From the NCBI GenBank assembly GCA_017398595.1, contig JAFQFR010000015.1, positions 32,504-96,503 on the forward strand: a DNA stretch of 64,000 bases, in the 5' to 3' direction. Each line of letters begins with the position of its first letter. Within the stretch, counting starts at the first letter, position 1. This stretch comes from Clostridia bacterium (GTDB taxonomy: Bacteria > Bacillota > Clostridia > Oscillospirales > CAG-272). Shown here one piece after another: positions 9,598 to 37,852 of the stretch. The notes below the pieces were generated by a model. The model worked only from the letters and a program-made list of their open reading frames with translations, searched no databases and was not told where the DNA came from. Position numbers and translations under genes: made by a program.

Positions 9598-10346
9598 TAA
9601 AAGAGCTCGCTGTCCGCATAGGTACACTCCCTCGAAAGGTCGATGTGCTCCTCGCGAAGTCCCGCCTGCATGAGCAACGTTTTGTTGACGGCGCCCAGCC
9701 CGCAGAGGAATTTGCCTTCGTTTTCGGACGGACGCAGATGTGCAAAGGTCAGCGAGTCTTCGCCAACGGCGGCAAGCACCTGCTTTGCGACCTCTTCGCC
9801 CACCTCGTAGTTTGCCATCGAAATGTGCGGACCGATCGCCGCGCGAATGTCCTCGGCGGACGCGCCGAGATAGCACATCTTCTGCACCGTCTTGCCGACG
9901 ATGTTGCCCACCGTGCCGCGCCATCCCGCATGCACCGCGGCAATGACGCCCGCACCGGGATCGGCAAGCAGGATCGGCACGCAGTCAGCCACTCTGACAC
10001 CGAGTGCCGTGCCCGTCGAGCAGCTCACAAGCGCATCGCCCTCGAACGTGGCGGGGGTATAGATGCCGTGACCGCCCATCTCGCGATCCACAACGATTAC
10101 ATTCGTCGAATGGATCTGCGGCATGATGACCAGCGTCTCGGGATCGACATCGACCGCCTCGCAGAAGCGCTCAATGTTCTTCTTCACGATGATATCCGGG
10201 TCGCCGCGGTAAAATCCGAGATTGAGCGACTTTGTATGCGCCTGCTTCGACATGCCGCCGAGGCGGGTGGAAAAGCCGTGCCGCACGGGGTACATCCCCT
10301 CGGAATAAAAATAAGTTACGCCATTATAGTCTGTGCGTTTCTGCAT
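9540..10346 (-). CDS. pgeF: Peptidoglycan editing factor / purine nucleoside phosphorylase (YfiH/YlmD family)
   Basis: HGFSTRLGG, QIHS, ADCVPILL, HAGWRG, FYSHR motifs; start moved to ATG 10346. Confidence 0.92.
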   Translation of the reverse strand: MQKRTDYNGVTYFYSEGMYPVRHGFSTRLGGMSKQAHTKSLNLGFYRGDPDIIVKKNIERFCEAVDVDPETLVIMPQIHSTNVIVVDREMGGHGIYTPATFEGDALVSCSTGTALGVRVADCVPILLADPGAGVIAAVHAGWRGTVGNIVGKTVQKMCYLGASAEDIRAAIGPHISMANYEVGEEVAKQVLAAVGEDSLTFAHLRPSENEGKFLCGLGAVNKTLLMQAGLREEHIDLSRECTYADSELFYSHRRMGEKRGTMMGIIAI

Positions 10347-10438
10347 GATAGTTCGTTTTCCTCTTTGTGAAAATTGGAATAGGGGGAGTTTGCTCGCGAA
10401 AACGTGCAAACCACAGTGAAATTTTGCTGCGGCGATGA

Positions 10439-10630
10439 ATGATTTGCACGCAGTGCGTGCATGATTTGATGCTATGCATCATGATTTGACGGCGACGCCG
10501 TCATGATTTGAATTGCCCTTAATGCGCCGCAGCGCAAATCATGGAGCAAAGCGAGAAATCATGAACATGTAGTGTTCAAATCATGCCCTGTCAGGGGCAA
10601 TTCATGCAGGTTGCCCTACAGGCAACCTGC
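10439..10630. repeat. Heptamer-hairpin array, copy A (4x ATGATTT, then 3x AAATCAT and 1x AATTCAT)
   Basis: Heptamers separated by short hairpins; homologous to 17870-18056 and 37216-37395. Confidence 0.9.
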
Positions 10631-10632
10631 TT

Positions 10633-11544
10633 TTACAAAGCAAACAATTTCACCATTTTGATCGCGCTGCCCTTTTCATACTCGCGCACCTCGCCGACGG
10701 CGAAAAAGCCGCTCTCATCCAAGAGGCGCACGCGCGTGCCGACGGGCAGCTTCGTGCCGATCTTTTTCTGGTACACCTCGCAGCCGTTGCGGCAGAGACG
10801 TGCGAAAAAGGGCGTAAGACGCACCGCCGTAAGGTCGGTAAACGCACTCTCGATCGGCAGCAGTAGCGCCGCACGCTCGGACGGCTCCATTGCCTCCAGC
10901 TCCGCAAGCGTATGTGCCGCCGCAAGGTCGAACGCGCCGCTCACCGTGCGTCTGAGCGAGGACATCACCGCACCGCAGCCGAGCGTTTCCCCGAGCTCGG
11001 TGATGACCGTGCGGACATAGGTGCCCTTGGAGACCGCGAGCAAAAGGCGGTATTCGGTGTCCGAAATCTTCGCCGCCGCGGCGGAATAGATCTCGATGGG
11101 ACGCGGCGCGACCTCTACGGTCTCGCCCGCGCGCTGGTAGTCCACCAGTTTTTTGCCGTTCACCTTGATCGCCGAGGTCATCGGCGGGGTCTGCATCCGC
11201 TTGCCGACCATGGCAGCCACAGCAGCGAGCACTGCCGACTCGTCGGGAATGGTTGCGCCCGTTTCGCGCACTTCGCCGTCGGTATCGCCCGTTTCGCTGA
11301 CCTTACCGAGCGTGAACGTCGCCTCGTAGGCTTTATCATGCTCGGAGAGATATTCGGATGCCTTGACTGCTCTGCCGCAGAGGATGGGCAGAACACCGGT
11401 CGCCATGGGATCCAGCGTCCCTGTGTGTCCGATCTGCCGCGTATCAAAGAGCTTGCGCATTTTACTGACGGCATCGTGCGAGGTAAAGCCGCTCGGCTTA
11501 TCCAGCACCAAAATGCCGCAGAGATCGGTCGGTTTACTGCGCAT
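10633..11544 (-). CDS. truB: tRNA pseudouridine(55) synthase
   Basis: LDKPSGFTSHD, GHTGTLDPMATGVL, SKGTYVR. Confidence 0.97.
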   Translation of the reverse strand: MRSKPTDLCGILVLDKPSGFTSHDAVSKMRKLFDTRQIGHTGTLDPMATGVLPILCGRAVKASEYLSEHDKAYEATFTLGKVSETGDTDGEVRETGATIPDESAVLAAVAAMVGKRMQTPPMTSAIKVNGKKLVDYQRAGETVEVAPRPIEIYSAAAAKISDTEYRLLLAVSKGTYVRTVITELGETLGCGAVMSSLRRTVSGAFDLAAAHTLAELEAMEPSERAALLLPIESAFTDLTAVRLTPFFARLCRNGCEVYQKKIGTKLPVGTRVRLLDESGFFAVGEVREYEKGSAIKMVKLFAL

Positions 11545-17601: not shown

Positions 17602-17871
17602 ATGAAAGCAGTTATTACGGTTATCGGTAAAGACCAGGTCGGCATCATCGCTTCTGTCAGCGCAAAATGTGCAGAGCACGGTGCAAACATCACGGAGATC
17701 ACGCAGAGCGTTCTCGACCAGTACTTTGCCATGATCATGATCGCCGACATCGACGGACTGAAAGCCGATTTCGTTACATTTGCAGACGAGCTGGAAGCAC
17801 TCGGCAAGAACAGCGGTCTTGAGATCCGCTGCATGCACGAGGACATCTTCGACGCGATGCATAAGATCTGA
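17602..17871 (+). CDS. ACT-domain protein (UPF0237)
   Basis: MKAVITVIGKDQVGIIA...HEDIFDAMHKI; normal partner of DUF711. Confidence 0.92.
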   Translation: MKAVITVIGKDQVGIIASVSAKCAEHGANITEITQSVLDQYFAMIMIADIDGLKADFVTFADELEALGKNSGLEIRCMHEDIFDAMHKI

Positions 17872-18056
17872 TGCTTGCCGCAGGCAAGCATCCATGAATT
17901 GCCCCTCACGGGGCATGATTTGAACACTCCGTGTTCATGATTTGGCTGCGCCATGATTTGCGCTGCGGCGCATAGGGCAATTCAAATCATGACGGCGGTG
18001 CCGTCAAATCATGATGCCGCAGGCATCAAATCATGCGCGCAAAGCGCGCAAATCAT
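17870..18056. repeat. Heptamer-hairpin array, copy B
   Basis: ATGAATT + 3x ATGATTT + 4x AAATCAT with hairpin spacers; colinear with the reverse complement of copy A. Confidence 0.9.
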
Positions 18057-18091
18057 CCTTTCAATTCAATTATCATAAGGAATCAATTATC

Positions 18092-19450
18092 ATGATCAAC
18101 ACCCAGGACATCTTAGAAACCATCAATATGATCCGCGAGGAGAACCTCGACGTGCGCACGGTCACGATGGGCATCTCGCTCTACGACTGTGTCAGCGATG
18201 ACGTGGACAAGCTCTGCGCCAATATTTACGACAAGCTGATGACCAGCGCAAAGGATCTCGTTCCCACCGCGGAAGCAATCGAAAAGCTGTACGGTATTCC
18301 GATCGTCAACAAGCGCGTTTCGGTCACGCCGATCTCCTATATCGGCGGCAAGGCAGGCCCCGACGGCTATATCAAGATCGCAAAGACGCTGGACCGCGCT
18401 GCAAGCGATCTCGGCATCAACTTTATCGGCGGTTACTCGGCACTGGTGCAAAAGGGCATGACCCGCGGCGCCGATGCACTGATCGAATCCATCCCCGACG
18501 CGCTGGCAGAGACCAACATGGTCTGCTCCTCGGTCAACGTCGGCTCGACGCGCGCCGGCATCAACATGGATGCCGTTGCACGCATGGGCAGAACCGTTAA
18601 GGCTGCCGCCGAAAAGACAGCAGACCGCGACGCGATCGGCTGTGCAAAGCTCGTTGTCTTTGCCAACGCCGTAGACGACAACCCCTTCATGGCGGGTGCG
18701 TTCCACGGCACGGGAGAGGGCGACTGCGTCATCAATGTCGGCGTCAGCGGCCCCGGCGTTGTCGAAAAGGCGATCCGCCGCGCAGGCGACTGCGATTTTT
18801 CCGCGCTCGCCGATGTTATCAAGAAGACCGCGTTCAAGATCACCCGCGTGGGTCAGCTTGTCGCGTATGAAGCCTCCAAGCGTCTGAACGTGCCCTACGG
18901 CATCGTTGACCTTTCGCTCGCACCCACGCCCGCCATCGGCGACAGCGTGGCATGCATCCTCGAGTCCATGGGACTGGACGTTTGCGGCGGTCCCGGTACC
19001 ACCGCGGCACTCGCCATGCTCAACGACGCGGTCAAGAAGGGCGGCGTCATGGCATCCAGCCATGTCGGCGGTCTGTCGGGCGCATTTATCCCCGTCAGTG
19101 AGGACGCGGGCATGATCGCAGCAGCCGAGGGTGGCGTGCTGACGCTCGAAAAGCTCGAAGCCATGACCGCCGTTTGCTCGGTAGGTCTGGACATGATCTG
19201 CATCCCCGGCGACACCACCGCCGAAACGATCAGCGGCATCATCGCCGACGAGATCGCCATCGGCATGGTCAACAACAAGACCACCGCTGTCCGCGTGATC
19301 CCCGCACCCGGCAAGGGCGTCGGCGAGAAGGTCGAATTCGGCGGTCTGCTCGGCTATGCACCCGTTATGCGCGTAAATCCCGTCTCCTGCGAGAAGTTCA
19401 TCGCCCGCGGCGGCCGTATCCCCGCACCGATCCACTCGCTGAAGAACTAA
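18092..19450 (+). CDS. PFL-like family protein (DUF711/UPF0210)
   Basis: [49 protein letters not shown]. The start is moved to 18092 because the upstream extension is the repeat array. Confidence 0.93.
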
Positions 19451-31188: not shown

Positions 31189-31257
31189 ATACATACCTCC
31201 GTTTTCTACTAAGGTATGCGGGAAAACACGCAGAAATGATTGTTTGCGCGCAAACAC

Positions 31258-35698: not shown

Positions 35699-37210
35699 CT
35701 ATTTCCTATCGAAAAAGTCCAGCACCTTCTCTTTATAGGATGGGATGCCTTCCTCTGCGTCGCCACGGAGGATCTTTTCAATATCTCTTATATATTCGTA
35801 TGGATATTTCGGCGAAAATATGCGTTTCATACGCAAGCCGCCGTCCAGCGACGGATCGCGCTCAACAAGCTTCGTCACGGCGCCTGCACCCGCGCCGAAG
35901 ATCGAGTGCAGTTCTTCCATCATATAAATATTATACATGCACTCGCTGCCGACCTTGGCATAGCCGACGTTTTCGAGGTTGCCGACCGCGTTTTTCTGAC
36001 GGTACATATAGTACGGCTTATACGAAGCGTTGGAAAGCATGAGCTGTGAATACTGGATGCACTTTGCCGCCATGGGCACGTCGGGCACAAAGGGGTCACC
36101 GTCGGGACGGGAGAGTGCCGCCGCGCGCTTGAAGCAGAAGGTATGTACCGTGATGTTGGTGGGATCAAGCGCCACGATGCGCTCGAGTGAGGACGAAAAC
36201 TTTTTGAAGCTGTCGCCCGGCAGACCCACGATGAGATCAGTGTTGATGTCGCGGATGCCCGACGCCTCGGCAAGTGCGTACGCACGGAAAAAGTCGTCCG
36301 CGTTATGCCGCCGTCCGATGTTTTCAAGCACATCGTCTGCAAGCGTCTGCGGATTGACGCTGACGCGCGTCACGCCGTACTCCTTGGCAATGCGCAGCTT
36401 TTCTTCCGTGATGGTATCGGGTCTGCCCGCCTCGAGCGTGAACTCGTCGAGCGCCGACACATCGGTGCACGCCGCGACCGTCGAAAGCAGCTTTTTGAGC
36501 TGACGCGCACTGAGCGTGGTGGGCGTGCCGCCGCCGATATAGACGGTGACAACGCGCTTGCCGAGTGCCTTGATCGTGGCAAACACGTTTTTGATGTCGC
36601 GCAGGAGCAGTACGAGGTAGTCGTCAAGCATGGAGAGCATTTTCTGCGACGCCGAAACGAACGAGCAGTACGCACAGCGCGTGGGGCAGAACGGGATCGA
36701 GATGTACACGCTGCAGCCGTTCGGATCCATTTCCTTGGTGAGCTTCAGCTCGTTCTGCGCGACCGCGGTGGCAAGAAACGCCTTTTTCGGATTGAGAAAA
36801 TACTCGGTGGCGAGCAGCTTGCGTGTTTTCATCACGCCGTAGCCGTCCTCAAGGTACTGCGCGGCAACCTTGGCGGGGCGCACACCCGTGAGCAGTCCCC
36901 ACGGCGAGATATAGCCGAAAAATTCCTTTGCCGCCAGCGTCATCGCATGGCCCGATGCCATCTTGCGCACGCGTTCTTTCGGGAAGATCTCCGAAAAGGG
37001 CACAAAGCACTCCGCGGCGCACTTCTTCTCGCCGAGACGGATCGTTGCATGCGAATAAATGCCGTCCTCCCGATCGACGACGACAAAATCCACCACGGGC
37101 ACATCCGCGCGTTCGACCTCGTTTTCCCCGAATTTTGCACCCGGGAAGTAAATGAGACACAGCGTCTGCGCGTAATATCTGTTTAAATTTCCTTGTATGT
37201 TTAAAATCAT
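35699..37210 (-). CDS. hemZ: Coproporphyrinogen dehydrogenase-like radical SAM protein HemZ
   Basis: PWGLLTGVRP.K, YISIPFCPTRCAYCSF, GGGTPT, PYYMYRQK. The start is moved to 37210 because the upstream extension is the repeat array. Confidence 0.9.
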   Translation of the reverse strand: MILNIQGNLNRYYAQTLCLIYFPGAKFGENEVERADVPVVDFVVVDREDGIYSHATIRLGEKKCAAECFVPFSEIFPKERVRKMASGHAMTLAAKEFFGYISPWGLLTGVRPAKVAAQYLEDGYGVMKTRKLLATEYFLNPKKAFLATAVAQNELKLTKEMDPNGCSVYISIPFCPTRCAYCSFVSASQKMLSMLDDYLVLLLRDIKNVFATIKALGKRVVTVYIGGGTPTTLSARQLKKLLSTVAACTDVSALDEFTLEAGRPDTITEEKLRIAKEYGVTRVSVNPQTLADDVLENIGRRHNADDFFRAYALAEASGIRDINTDLIVGLPGDSFKKFSSSLERIVALDPTNITVHTFCFKRAAALSRPDGDPFVPDVPMAAKCIQYSQLMLSNASYKPYYMYRQKNAVGNLENVGYAKVGSECMYNIYMMEELHSIFGAGAGAVTKLVERDPSLDGGLRMKRIFSPKYPYEYIRDIEKILRGDAEEGIPSYKEKVLDFFDRK

Positions 37211-37215
37211 ATATA

Positions 37216-37395
37216 GCACTTCGTGCAATGAATTGCGATCCTGCGGATTGCATGATTTGAGCACCTTGTGCTCATGATTTGGCTTCGCCATGATTTGCGC
37301 TGCGGCGCATTGGGGATTGCAATTCAAATCATGGAGCATCAGCGAGAAATCATGACGGCACAGCCGTCAAATCATGCGCGGGACGCGCAAATCAT
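37216..37395. repeat. Heptamer-hairpin array, copy C
   Basis: ATGAATT + 3x ATGATTT + 4x AAATCAT with hairpin spacers. Confidence 0.9.
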
Positions 37396-37399
37396 CGTC

Positions 37400-37852
37400 T
37401 TATTTTTTCCAGATTTTTGAGTCCATCAAGATGGTGACGGGGCCGTCGGCAACAAGGTCGATCTGCATATCCGCGCCGAACACGCCTTTTTCTACGGGCA
37501 CGCCCGCCGCTTGAAGCTGCTCGCAAAAGCGCTCGTAGAGCGGCTCGGCGATGGCAGGCGCCGCCGCGCCCGTAAACGAGGGGCGGTTGCCGTGCGAAAC
37601 ATCGGCGCCGAGCGTGAAATTGGAAACGACCAGCGCACTGCCGCCGATGTCGGTGACCGACAGGTTCATCTTATCGTTTGCATCGGTGAAGATGCGGAGC
37701 TTTGCAACCTTTGCCGCCAGGATGTCGGCATCCTTTTCGCCATCGCCGTCCACCACGCCGCAAAGGATAAACAAGCCCTTGCCGCATTTGCCCGCGGGGA
37801 CGCCGTCTGCCACGACCGAGGCGGACGCGGCTCTCTGAATCACTGCGATCAT
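37400..37852 (-). CDS. dtd: D-aminoacyl-tRNA deacylase
   Basis: AVIQR, VSNFTL, GNRPSF, GVFGADM, DGPVT. Confidence 0.95.
   Translation of the reverse strand: MIAVIQRAASASVVADGVPAGKCGKGLFILCGVVDGDGEKDADILAAKVAKLRIFTDANDKMNLSVTDIGGSALVVSNFTLGADVSHGNRPSFTGAAAPAIAEPLYERFCEQLQAAGVPVEKGVFGADMQIDLVADGPVTILMDSKIWKK

Follow-up and report, generated by a model that had tools for sequence, protein, structure and literature searches.

Three heptamer arrays in the window

The window analysed in this study is a 64,000-nt stretch of a Clostridia bacterium genome (G000; assembly of 1.88 Mb in 57 contigs, 75% complete). It contains three arrays of about 190 nt, A (10439-10630), B (17870-18056) and C (37204-37395), in each of which ATGATTT heptamers alternate with short GC-rich hairpins and are arranged in two mutually inverted arms. 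We describe these arrays, the repeat family to which they belong and the relation of this family to genes encoding PF05635/TIGR02436 proteins. An earlier note on this DNA had recognised the heptamer-hairpin layout of A and its recurrence near 17870 and 37216, and had placed the arrays in gaps between co-directional genes; direct reading of the sequence and Pfam annotation of the neighbours agreed with both statements for A, B and C. The layout of A is the reverse complement of that of B and C. The arrays and their flanking genes are as follows.

10439-10630, minus strand: array A, complete element, with its L-to-R reading on the minus strand
10606-10630, minus strand: terminal hairpin of A with an 11-bp stem, immediately past the truB stop codon
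10536-10605, minus strand: L-arm of A, with plus-strand AAATCAT at 10536, 10556 and 10578 and AATTCAT at 10599; its three spacers are two perfect hairpins and one GGAGC-N3-GCGAG module
10510-10535, minus strand: centre of A, with the 3' strand of the long-range helix P1 (GGGCAATTC, minus strand) and a central GCGC-TGCG-GCGC hairpin
10439-10509, minus strand: R-arm of A, with plus-strand ATGATTT at 10439, 10461, 10481 and 10503 and three hairpin spacers
Flanks of A, both genes on the minus strand: truB, stop at 10633; Cu-oxidase_4/YfiH-like gene, start near 10409
17870-18056, plus strand: array B, complete element, with its terminal hairpin at 17870-17892
17894-17900, plus strand: ATGAATT of B, followed in the first arm by ATGATTT at 17915, 17937 and 17953
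17960-17983, plus strand: centre of B, followed in the second arm by AAATCAT at 17984, 18006, 18028 and 18050
Flanks of B, both genes on the plus strand: ACT-domain gene, stop at 17869-17871; DUF711 gene, start at 18092
37204-37395, plus strand: array C, complete element, with an outer AAATCAT at 37204-37210 and a short terminal hairpin at 37211-37227
37228-37234, plus strand: ATGAATT of C, followed in the first arm by ATGATTT at 37252, 37274 and 37290
37297-37325, plus strand: centre of C, followed in the second arm by AAATCAT at 37326, 37347, 37369 and 37389
Flanks of C, both genes on the minus strand: dtd, stop at 37400; radical-SAM gene, start at 37210

As dtd and the radical-SAM gene both lie on the minus strand, array C is antisense to transcription; an orthologous copy of it is present in the congener G006 (L037). 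The pattern ATGATTT-N8-22-ATGATTT was found 15 times in the window, always within A, B or C, with 0.01 occurrences expected and none of 100 shuffles reaching 15. The lone heptamer was found 27 times (shuffle mean 8.96, maximum 17). Heptamer spacing in the arrays was 16-24 bp, often 20-22 bp, and was not constant.

The earlier note had also proposed a genome scan, an analysis of covariation, an Rfam query and searches for empty orthologous sites and for a candidate mobiliser gene. The Rfam query assigned the arrays to no family: at the gathering thresholds of Rfam 15, only a glycine riboswitch passed in the window, E-value searches across A and B gave matches at chance level only, and the sole CRISPR (short palindromic repeats that are clustered and regularly interspaced) match to the arrays scored 14.7 bits, compared with a cut-off of 40. 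The riboswitch itself consists of tandem aptamers (34.9 and 64 bits) at 2762-2934 on the plus strand.

Modular architecture of the element family

A scan of G000 revealed 14 clusters of at least three exact heptamers, and 18 when ATGAATT was allowed. Full elements from this genome and two congeners, 29 in total, could be aligned with a mean column identity of 77%. Because copies from three genomes align so well, the spacers are homologous modules, and the earlier comparison with a miniature repeat-spacer array was not supported. The accompanying statement that the spacers vary yet fold was correct with respect to folding, as 201 of the 239 distinct spacers of three genomes folded end to end (stem of at least 3, loop of at most 6), mostly with 3-nt loops, whereas 500 shuffles gave 9.7 on average and never more than 19; the spacers are not, however, free to vary.

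The element is non-coding and 150-200 nt long. In a full element, a terminal hairpin is followed by H1 (usually ATGAATT), hairpin A, H2, hairpin B, H3, a 3-bp hairpin C, H4 and a central 4-bp hairpin D. Next come a segment complementary to H1 and the 5' half of hairpin A and then four AAATCAT units that are interleaved with three further spacer modules. The 4+4 architecture that had been described as fixed proved to be the usual form, although arms of 3-5 heptamers, single-arm half elements and one run of nine heptamers were also present. A module of the form GGAGC-N3-5-GCGAG or GCTCC recurred across families, always in the AAATCAT reading, and the tail-to-tail arrangement of the arms was also found in more distant genomes. 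The arms differed in many metagenome copies, one having AATTCAT and the other AAATCAT, and a 12-nt word and its complement were present at the two outer ends of some G006 copies only.

Two further observations concern individual copies. In three G006 copies (L038:380-680, L040:370-680 and L056:380-720), an extra stretch of about 105 nt, which contains a separate hairpin and an inverted repeat of 8 bp, was located at the same point of the central hairpin. This insert represents either a small element nested in the array or an insertion at a specific site. At G000 C38:56902-58587, arrays were located between mreB and mreC and past mreD; the latter is a truncated L-arm in G000, whereas G006 has the full element there.

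Conserved fold and strand signature

In the 29-element alignment, the local hairpins were paired in 88.2% of cells, compared with 77.2% for shuffled partners and 25-42% when the partners were slid, and 27 of the 46 hairpin pairs showed compensatory change on both sides. We also found a 13-bp long-range helix, P1, which the earlier note had missed; it joins the first heptamer, together with the stem after it, to the segment that immediately precedes the second arm, and it was paired in 98.6% of cases, compared with 90.9% for local hairpin A. In particular, P1 column 34-131, which is the variable position within H1, covaried with its partner and was AU in 22 rows and UA in 7, with no exception. 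On the wrong strand, only 5-8 of the 13 positions of P1 matched, and its G.U pairs favoured the L-to-R strand. Minimum-energy folds paired the heptamers across the inverted arms, with z-scores of -6.2 and -5.8 as RNA and -4.1 as DNA. A cross-arm heptamer ladder was rejected as the conserved fold, as its outer rung was unsupported: H1 was ATGAATT in 22 of the 29 elements, while H8 stayed AAATCAT.

The hairpin loops revealed a strand signature. Triloop hairpins accounted for 249 of 346 spacers, and the loop was G-N-A in 156 cases on the AAATCAT-reading strand and in 5 on the other; 133 were closed triloops of the C-GNA-G class. The signature was present in both arms and, because each arm follows its own AAATCAT reading, it is found on one DNA strand in the first arm and on the other strand in the second. 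In the portions of PMC13037366 that treat this class, C-GNA-G hairpins are termed mini-hairpin DNA, are said to have extraordinary stability as DNA and a much lower one as RNA, and are placed at single-strand initiation sites of phages and plasmids; the abstract of PMC3201870 stresses the role of the closing pair. The loop signature in our alignment gives a hint that the hairpins may be selected as single-stranded DNA. Loop counts in sister families with other heptamers pointed in the same direction, although they are suggestive only: arms in the ..TCAY reading had 7 GNA, 0 TNC and 6 other loops, and arms in the opposite reading had 12 TNC, 0 GNA and 1 other. This count covers 39 triloops and 10 of 27 loci, and the arms were assigned by their heptamers, the proximal and distal labels being unreliable.

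Association with PF05635/TIGR02436 genes

Clustering of open reading frames (ORFs) around 17 distant loci revealed no recurrent neighbour gene. After the addition of 13 metagenome loci, one real recurrent gene was found, which belongs to PF05635; the large clusters were mostly spurious frames running through the arrays. The array-linked protein has 114-122 residues, matches PF05635 with E-values of 1e-23 to 3e-26, falls in NCBIfam TIGR02436 and matches PDB entry 2rld, which has five chains, with an E-value of 4e-23. Genes of this family go by the names '23S rRNA intervening-sequence protein' and 'four helix bundle protein', and their proteins have a conserved GxxRxxxSxxxNxxE helix. In G014 (L013) and on metagenome contigs L238, L240 and L241, the ATGATTT array ended 16-20 nt before the PF05635 start codon, and in L241 arrays were present on both sides of the gene. 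The linked gene occupies L013:1140-1481 in G014 and L240:924-1289 on L240. The search for a candidate mobiliser near the arrays yielded this gene, which is not a known transposase.

PF05635 was found in 15 of 19 congeners, with 32 matches, and an inverted heptamer array was located upstream of nearly every copy, with a heptamer that differed by paralogue. These included AAATCAT, ATTTCAT, ATATCAC, ACTTCAC, GCTTCAT, ACGATGT, CATCATT, ATATCGC, TATATCA and others, so that ATGATTT/AAATCAT is one of at least a dozen heptamer types beside PF05635 genes. In G057 and G083, all seven PF05635 genes had heptamer arrays, the arms flanking the gene in three of them. A 7-mer present in at least three direct copies in the 300 nt upstream was counted at 31 of 36 PF05635 loci of the order and in 10 of 55 control windows about 1 kb away. 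The same count in two Nostoc genomes and one each of Pedobacter, Flavobacterium and Adhaeribacter gave 13 of 24 PF05635 loci and 6 of 48 controls. In these four genera the repeats were mostly abutting, often with inverted copies after the gene. Abutting heptamers without hairpins also preceded PF05635 genes in G000 (C19 and C27), G002, G008, G011 and Nostoc, including one Nostoc gene that was preceded by three exact and two one-base-variant tandem copies of TGGGGAC.

In a protein tree of 29 rows, seven of nine multi-member heptamer types were monophyletic, and the four AAATCAT-linked proteins formed a clade with support of 98/93. Among the 36 loci, 16 were located at most about 650 nt downstream of tRNA genes in the same orientation, and another was upstream of a tRNA-Leu gene. 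It seems that the module prefers the tails of stable-RNA operons.

Distribution, empty sites and mobility

The three-heptamer pattern was found in 4 of 41 relatives, all of one genus (30 hits in G000, 92 in G006, 7 in G014 and 1 in G005), that is, in 4 of the 19 genomes of this genus; a reversed-pattern control over the same relatives gave 2 hits, both in G019. In an even sample of 301 genomes across the order, five matched, two of them with single chance-like matches, and true arrays were present in three, namely G000 and two genomes of another family, G057 (26 hits) and G083 (2). Among the matches listed in a scan of one genome per species, at least 12 loci carried hairpin-spaced arrays, in metagenome-assembled genomes labelled Acutalibacteraceae, Oscillospiraceae, Faecousia, Ruminococcaceae and Clostridia. 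A metagenome scan returned 15 stretches, 11 of which had full arrays. Carriage by phages was considered and rejected, as the six matches in a scan of viral contigs were all simple tandem repeats and none was a true array.

Identical copies were found at the ends of G006 contigs, the assembly being broken inside the arrays, as would be expected after a recent burst. Empty orthologous sites were found in congeners. The gap between the ACT-domain and DUF711 genes, which holds array B, was 15-24 bp long in seven congeners, carried an array in G000 and G006 and a sister array with a different heptamer in G005, and was filled by unrelated repeats elsewhere. Sites that are filled in G006 were mapped to G000: two were cleanly empty, one retained a 23-nt remnant, one had a two-heptamer mini-array and five held unrelated repeat elements. 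No target-site duplication was observed at the two clean filled/empty pairs (L048 and L051b), which are few. The remnant, at 31234-31256 on the plus strand of the window, consists of a heptamer-like word and a GTTT..AAAC palindrome and is either the footprint or the seed of an element; G006 has a full array at this site. A family of solo GTTT..AAAC terminal hairpins was rejected, as its 25 hits were not enriched over the 34 of a reversed-genome control.

Of the 54 copies listed, 31 had both flanks callable, and these comprised 11 sense, 13 antisense, 5 convergent and 2 divergent copies, placing 24 of the 31 between co-directional genes. As evident from these results, the family resembles MITEs (miniature transposable elements with inverted repeats) in being small, non-coding and multicopy, in its presence or absence at orthologous sites and in having gene-carrying relatives with the same ends (L013, L238, L240 and L241), although the gene is no known transposase and the duplication typical of MITEs was not seen at the two pairs. 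The many copies, the patchy occurrence in congeners, the empty sites, the near-identical assembly-breaking copies and the gene-linked array are in keeping with the non-autonomous element suggested earlier.

Several side observations were made at these sites. The gap of array B (window 17871-18091; orthologues L184-L202) is a hot spot with at least five different fillings, which include heptamer arrays of two types, a hairpin element that five species share and that measures about 115 bp, and a five-fold 55-bp tandem repeat in G003. Unrelated repeats of about 250 bp with long inverted ends fill the five G000 sites where G006 has ATGATTT arrays; such repeats are located at about 134-389 in the window (C12:32637-32892) and at G000 C27:44699-44986, C12:23111-23460 and C38:98608-99018. 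In L203 (G057 C4:1-7747), arrays occupy five successive intergenic gaps within 5 kb.

Comparison with known repeat systems

To place the family, we compared it with described systems. One close likeness is to the intervening sequences (IVSs) of 23S rRNA that carry a homologous ORF. According to passages of PMC4990558, 3-4 tandem heptamers, strain-variable in number, stand just before that ORF, and the terminal inverted repeats of the IVS form a stem that is cut by RNase III. The same passages cite Lin et al. 2006 for a homopentameric ring formed by a PF05635-family protein, and Ralph and McClelland 1993 for the idea that the IVS ORF serves mobility. Gene-linked ATGATTT arrays share with IVSs the protein family, inverted repeats capable of forming a stem and direct heptamers before the ORF, and both occur sporadically, in a horizontal pattern, and are regarded as selfish (for IVSs, PMC4990558). 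There were differences as well. The PF05635 ORF is absent from the three window arrays and occurs only in gene-linked relatives; the arrays are located between protein genes, in mRNA operons, rather than in 23S rRNA helices 25 or 45; and their heptamers are separated by hairpins, whereas those of IVSs abut. In this genus, both arms are usually upstream of the PF05635 gene. The stem-forming inverted repeats of the arrays lack a conserved outermost rung, while P1 is conserved.

Heptamer runs without an assigned role are also known from other bacteria. The main text of PMC4692102 describes hundreds of intergenic runs in Xanthomonas (GGGAATC) and in Nostoc and Anabaena (GGGGAYT), often as two runs in convergent, that is inverted, orientation. 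They resemble our arrays in their 7-nt unit, intergenic position, large number and frequent convergent pairing, but they abut, whereas ATGATTT arrays carry hairpin spacers. The TGGGGAC repeat before the Nostoc PF05635 gene is the GGGGAYT repeat of PMC4692102 in another frame. That main text does not name the PF05635 family and contains no mention of 'S23', 'four helix' or 'intervening', its supplements being outside the search. In the literature covered, we found no general link between heptamer arrays and PF05635; the supplements of PMC4692102, which treat genes beside the repeats and may bear on Xanthomonas, fall outside this coverage. The earlier description of the family as possibly undescribed holds only in part: it matches no Rfam family, but tandem heptamers before a homologous ORF in one rRNA IVS (PMC4990558) and dispersed inverted heptamers (PMC4692102) had already been noted.

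Members of PF05635/TIGR02436 have been met in rRNA IVSs, beside retroelement reverse transcriptases and in cas loci, where 18 such genes were found (PMC4990558, PMC10053308 and PMC3936711, the last for the 18 genes). In fold and family, PF05635 has been likened to Avd, the accessory protein of diversity-generating retroelements, in a passage of PMC10053308. The resemblance to Avd lies in this fold and in the pentameric ring formed by the family, whereas no reverse transcriptase or template/variable repeat was seen beside the arrays, where no search aimed at them was made. We know of no heptamer-specific binding by Avd. The cyanobacterial heptamer repeats also go by the name 'STRR'.

The trp RNA-binding attenuation protein (TRAP) forms a ring of identical subunits that reads triplet-repeat RNA, one repeat per subunit. 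The likeness to TRAP is an analogy of mechanism only, a ring reading short repeats; the protein fold is unrelated, and the repeats here are 7 nt long with hairpin spacers. CRISPR arrays combine repeats some 23-50 nt long with unique spacers of comparable length and with cas genes, whereas the present arrays have 7-nt repeats and 9-17-nt spacers that are conserved modules. Repetitive extragenic palindromic (REP) sequences and bacterial interspersed mosaic elements (BIMEs) consist of an imperfect palindrome with a conserved GTAG-type word, are built from alternating units, and are extragenic, multicopy and associated with REP-associated tyrosine transposases (RAYTs). Like these, the arrays have extragenic palindromic units with a conserved single-stranded word beside the hairpin, lie in many copies between operon genes, form species-specific families and lack target duplication. 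In contrast to REP and BIME units, they have the word ATGATTT/AAATCAT and no GTAG, their units follow one another in the same direction within an arm, the only inversion being at the centre, and the linked gene encodes a four-helix-bundle protein, with no link to PF01797. The earlier verdict that neither CRISPR dimensions nor the GTAG-REP pattern fits the arrays is supported by their 7-nt repeats, lack of GTAG and tandem-direct units.

Origin of the arrays and alternative explanations

The arrays are a real, structured repeat family that is a hairpin-spaced, orphan-forming variant of the IVS-type element and not a REP sequence, a CRISPR array or a member of any Rfam family. The window arrays are probably ORF-less, MITE-like copies of a repeat module that is at home beside PF05635/TIGR02436 genes, and we read the orphan arrays as derived from an IVS-type selfish module. 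The module has two inverted arms with about four copies of one heptamer each, short GC-rich hairpins between the copies and the long-range helix P1. Each PF05635 paralogue carries its own heptamer, and the ATGATTT type, in a few species, has probably multiplied without the gene and come to fill gaps among housekeeping genes. The heptamer runs may be multivalent sites for the cognate homopentameric ring, with one heptamer per subunit, and the hairpins may act as rigid spacers between these sites. The inverted arms might pair as IVS terminal repeats do before RNase III cutting, and orphan copies could act as structured intercistronic inserts and possibly as protein sinks. Spread may have followed a single-strand or recombination-based route, which fits better than cut-and-paste because target duplication is absent. 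The earlier suggestion of a multivalent protein-binding scaffold of single-stranded DNA or RNA is kept as a concrete working hypothesis, with the pentameric PF05635 protein as the candidate partner.

Several observations weigh against this derivation from a PF05635-linked module. No ATGATTT-linked PF05635 gene was found in the richest carriers, where none of five genes in G000, one in G006 and three in G057 was so linked (completeness of 75%, 84% and 97%, respectively), all of them having other heptamers; hence, a cognate gene in the same cell is not needed or was unassembled. The agreement between protein tree and heptamer type indicates co-inheritance and not recognition, since kin share both gene and array. 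The repeats were fairly frequent in control windows too (the 10 of 55 given above). Arm-to-arm pairing of heptamers is imperfect because many metagenome copies mix AATTCAT and AAATCAT arms, and the strand signals conflict mildly, the GNA loops pointing to both DNA strands and the G.U pairs of P1 to the L-to-R strand. At several sister loci, by-eye reading placed an apparent sigma-70-like promoter between the array and the PF05635 gene; as the promoter-like site follows the array, the array may be outside the mRNA there. Finally, we know of no catalytic activity for PF05635, so the family fails to explain mobility.

Three other explanations were weighed. The arrays could be host cis-acting RNAs, such as intercistronic stabilisers, processing sites or attenuators, that are immobile and selected operon by operon. 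The position of 24 of 31 copies within operons between co-directional genes, the strong RNA folds, and contigs from two RNA libraries that run from the flanking genes into A and B would all suit such a role. These contigs, however, give no transcript ends, strand or level and cannot show transcription, and the two orientations were equally frequent (11 and 13). Most congeners have no array at the same operons, where the genes are 15-24 bp apart, and unrelated repeats occupy the same sites in other species; we therefore regard this explanation as unlikely. A separate RNA-library contig (depth 2) joins 10346 to 10645 through 39 other letters in place of array A; it probably comes from a related strain or species without array A rather than from processing.

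Mobilisation of a REP/BIME-type family by a RAYT-like Y1 (HUH) transposase, in which case the heptamer and hairpin would correspond to GTAG and the palindrome and the PF05635 neighbourhood would be incidental, appears quite improbable to us. Such a family would account for extragenic, palindromic, multicopy arrays without target duplication or clear terminal inverted repeats, and the strand-specific loop signature is typical of folded single-stranded DNA. The transposase domain PF01797 (Y1), however, did not track the array carriers, and the RAYT/Y1 transposase was rejected as the mobiliser: it was found in 11 of the 19 congeners, including the non-carriers G001, G008, G015 and G017, had no match in the richest carrier G006 (84% complete), and its only strong copy in G000 had no arrays around it. 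The tandem-direct units and the missing GTAG speak against it as well, as does the link of a dozen heptamer types to PF05635. A double-stranded DNA operator or nucleoid-protein array, in which heptamer sites are about two helical turns apart and the hairpins are a by-product, would suit the 16-24 bp spacing, often 20-22 bp, and the several sister arrays that by-eye reading placed upstream of a promoter-like site for the PF05635 gene. Duplex recognition predicts no compensatory hairpins, GNA loops or variable spacing, whereas the hairpins are maintained by compensatory change, the loops keep the strand-specific GNA and the spacing is not constant; this explanation is very improbable.

Beyond derivation from a PF05635-linked module, a wider interpretation can be offered tentatively, and we think it somewhat doubtful. 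PF05635 pentamers may be sequence-specific readers of heptamer repeats, the protein and its inverted arms forming one widespread and as yet unrecognised selfish or regulatory class. This class would unite rRNA IVSs, the cyanobacterial and Xanthomonas heptamer runs and the hairpin-spaced arrays. Arrays with hairpin spacers would function in the state of folded single-stranded DNA, each arm bearing C-GNA-G mini-hairpins on its AAATCAT-reading strand, and orphan arrays would be bound, or moved, in trans.

The association of PF05635 with paralogue-specific heptamer arrays is a more interesting result than the window arrays themselves. PF05635/TIGR02436 is a large family with solved structures and no known function, and an array specific to the paralogue beside almost every copy offers a testable ligand with a built-in specificity code. 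The modules also offer an origin for orphan heptamer arrays in intergenic gaps, which interrupt short-read assemblies and may change the expression of operons. Should the link extend to the cyanobacterial and Xanthomonas runs, it would bear on repeats whose role is still to be elucidated according to the main text of PMC4692102.

Other heptamer families in the same genome

We also observed arrays of other heptamer types in G000. A second hairpin-spaced family, with the heptamer GTGAAAT/ATTTCAC, was found at C11:182-373 and C17:36262-36365, and PF05635 fragments on C3 and C11 are the halves of one gene behind the C11 copy of this array. About 1 kb to the left of the window start, the PF05635 gene at C12:31150-31506 (L255:1486-1842) is preceded by an inverted GTGAAGT/ACTTCAC array of its own and closely follows a tRNA-Arg gene and a terminator-like hairpin.

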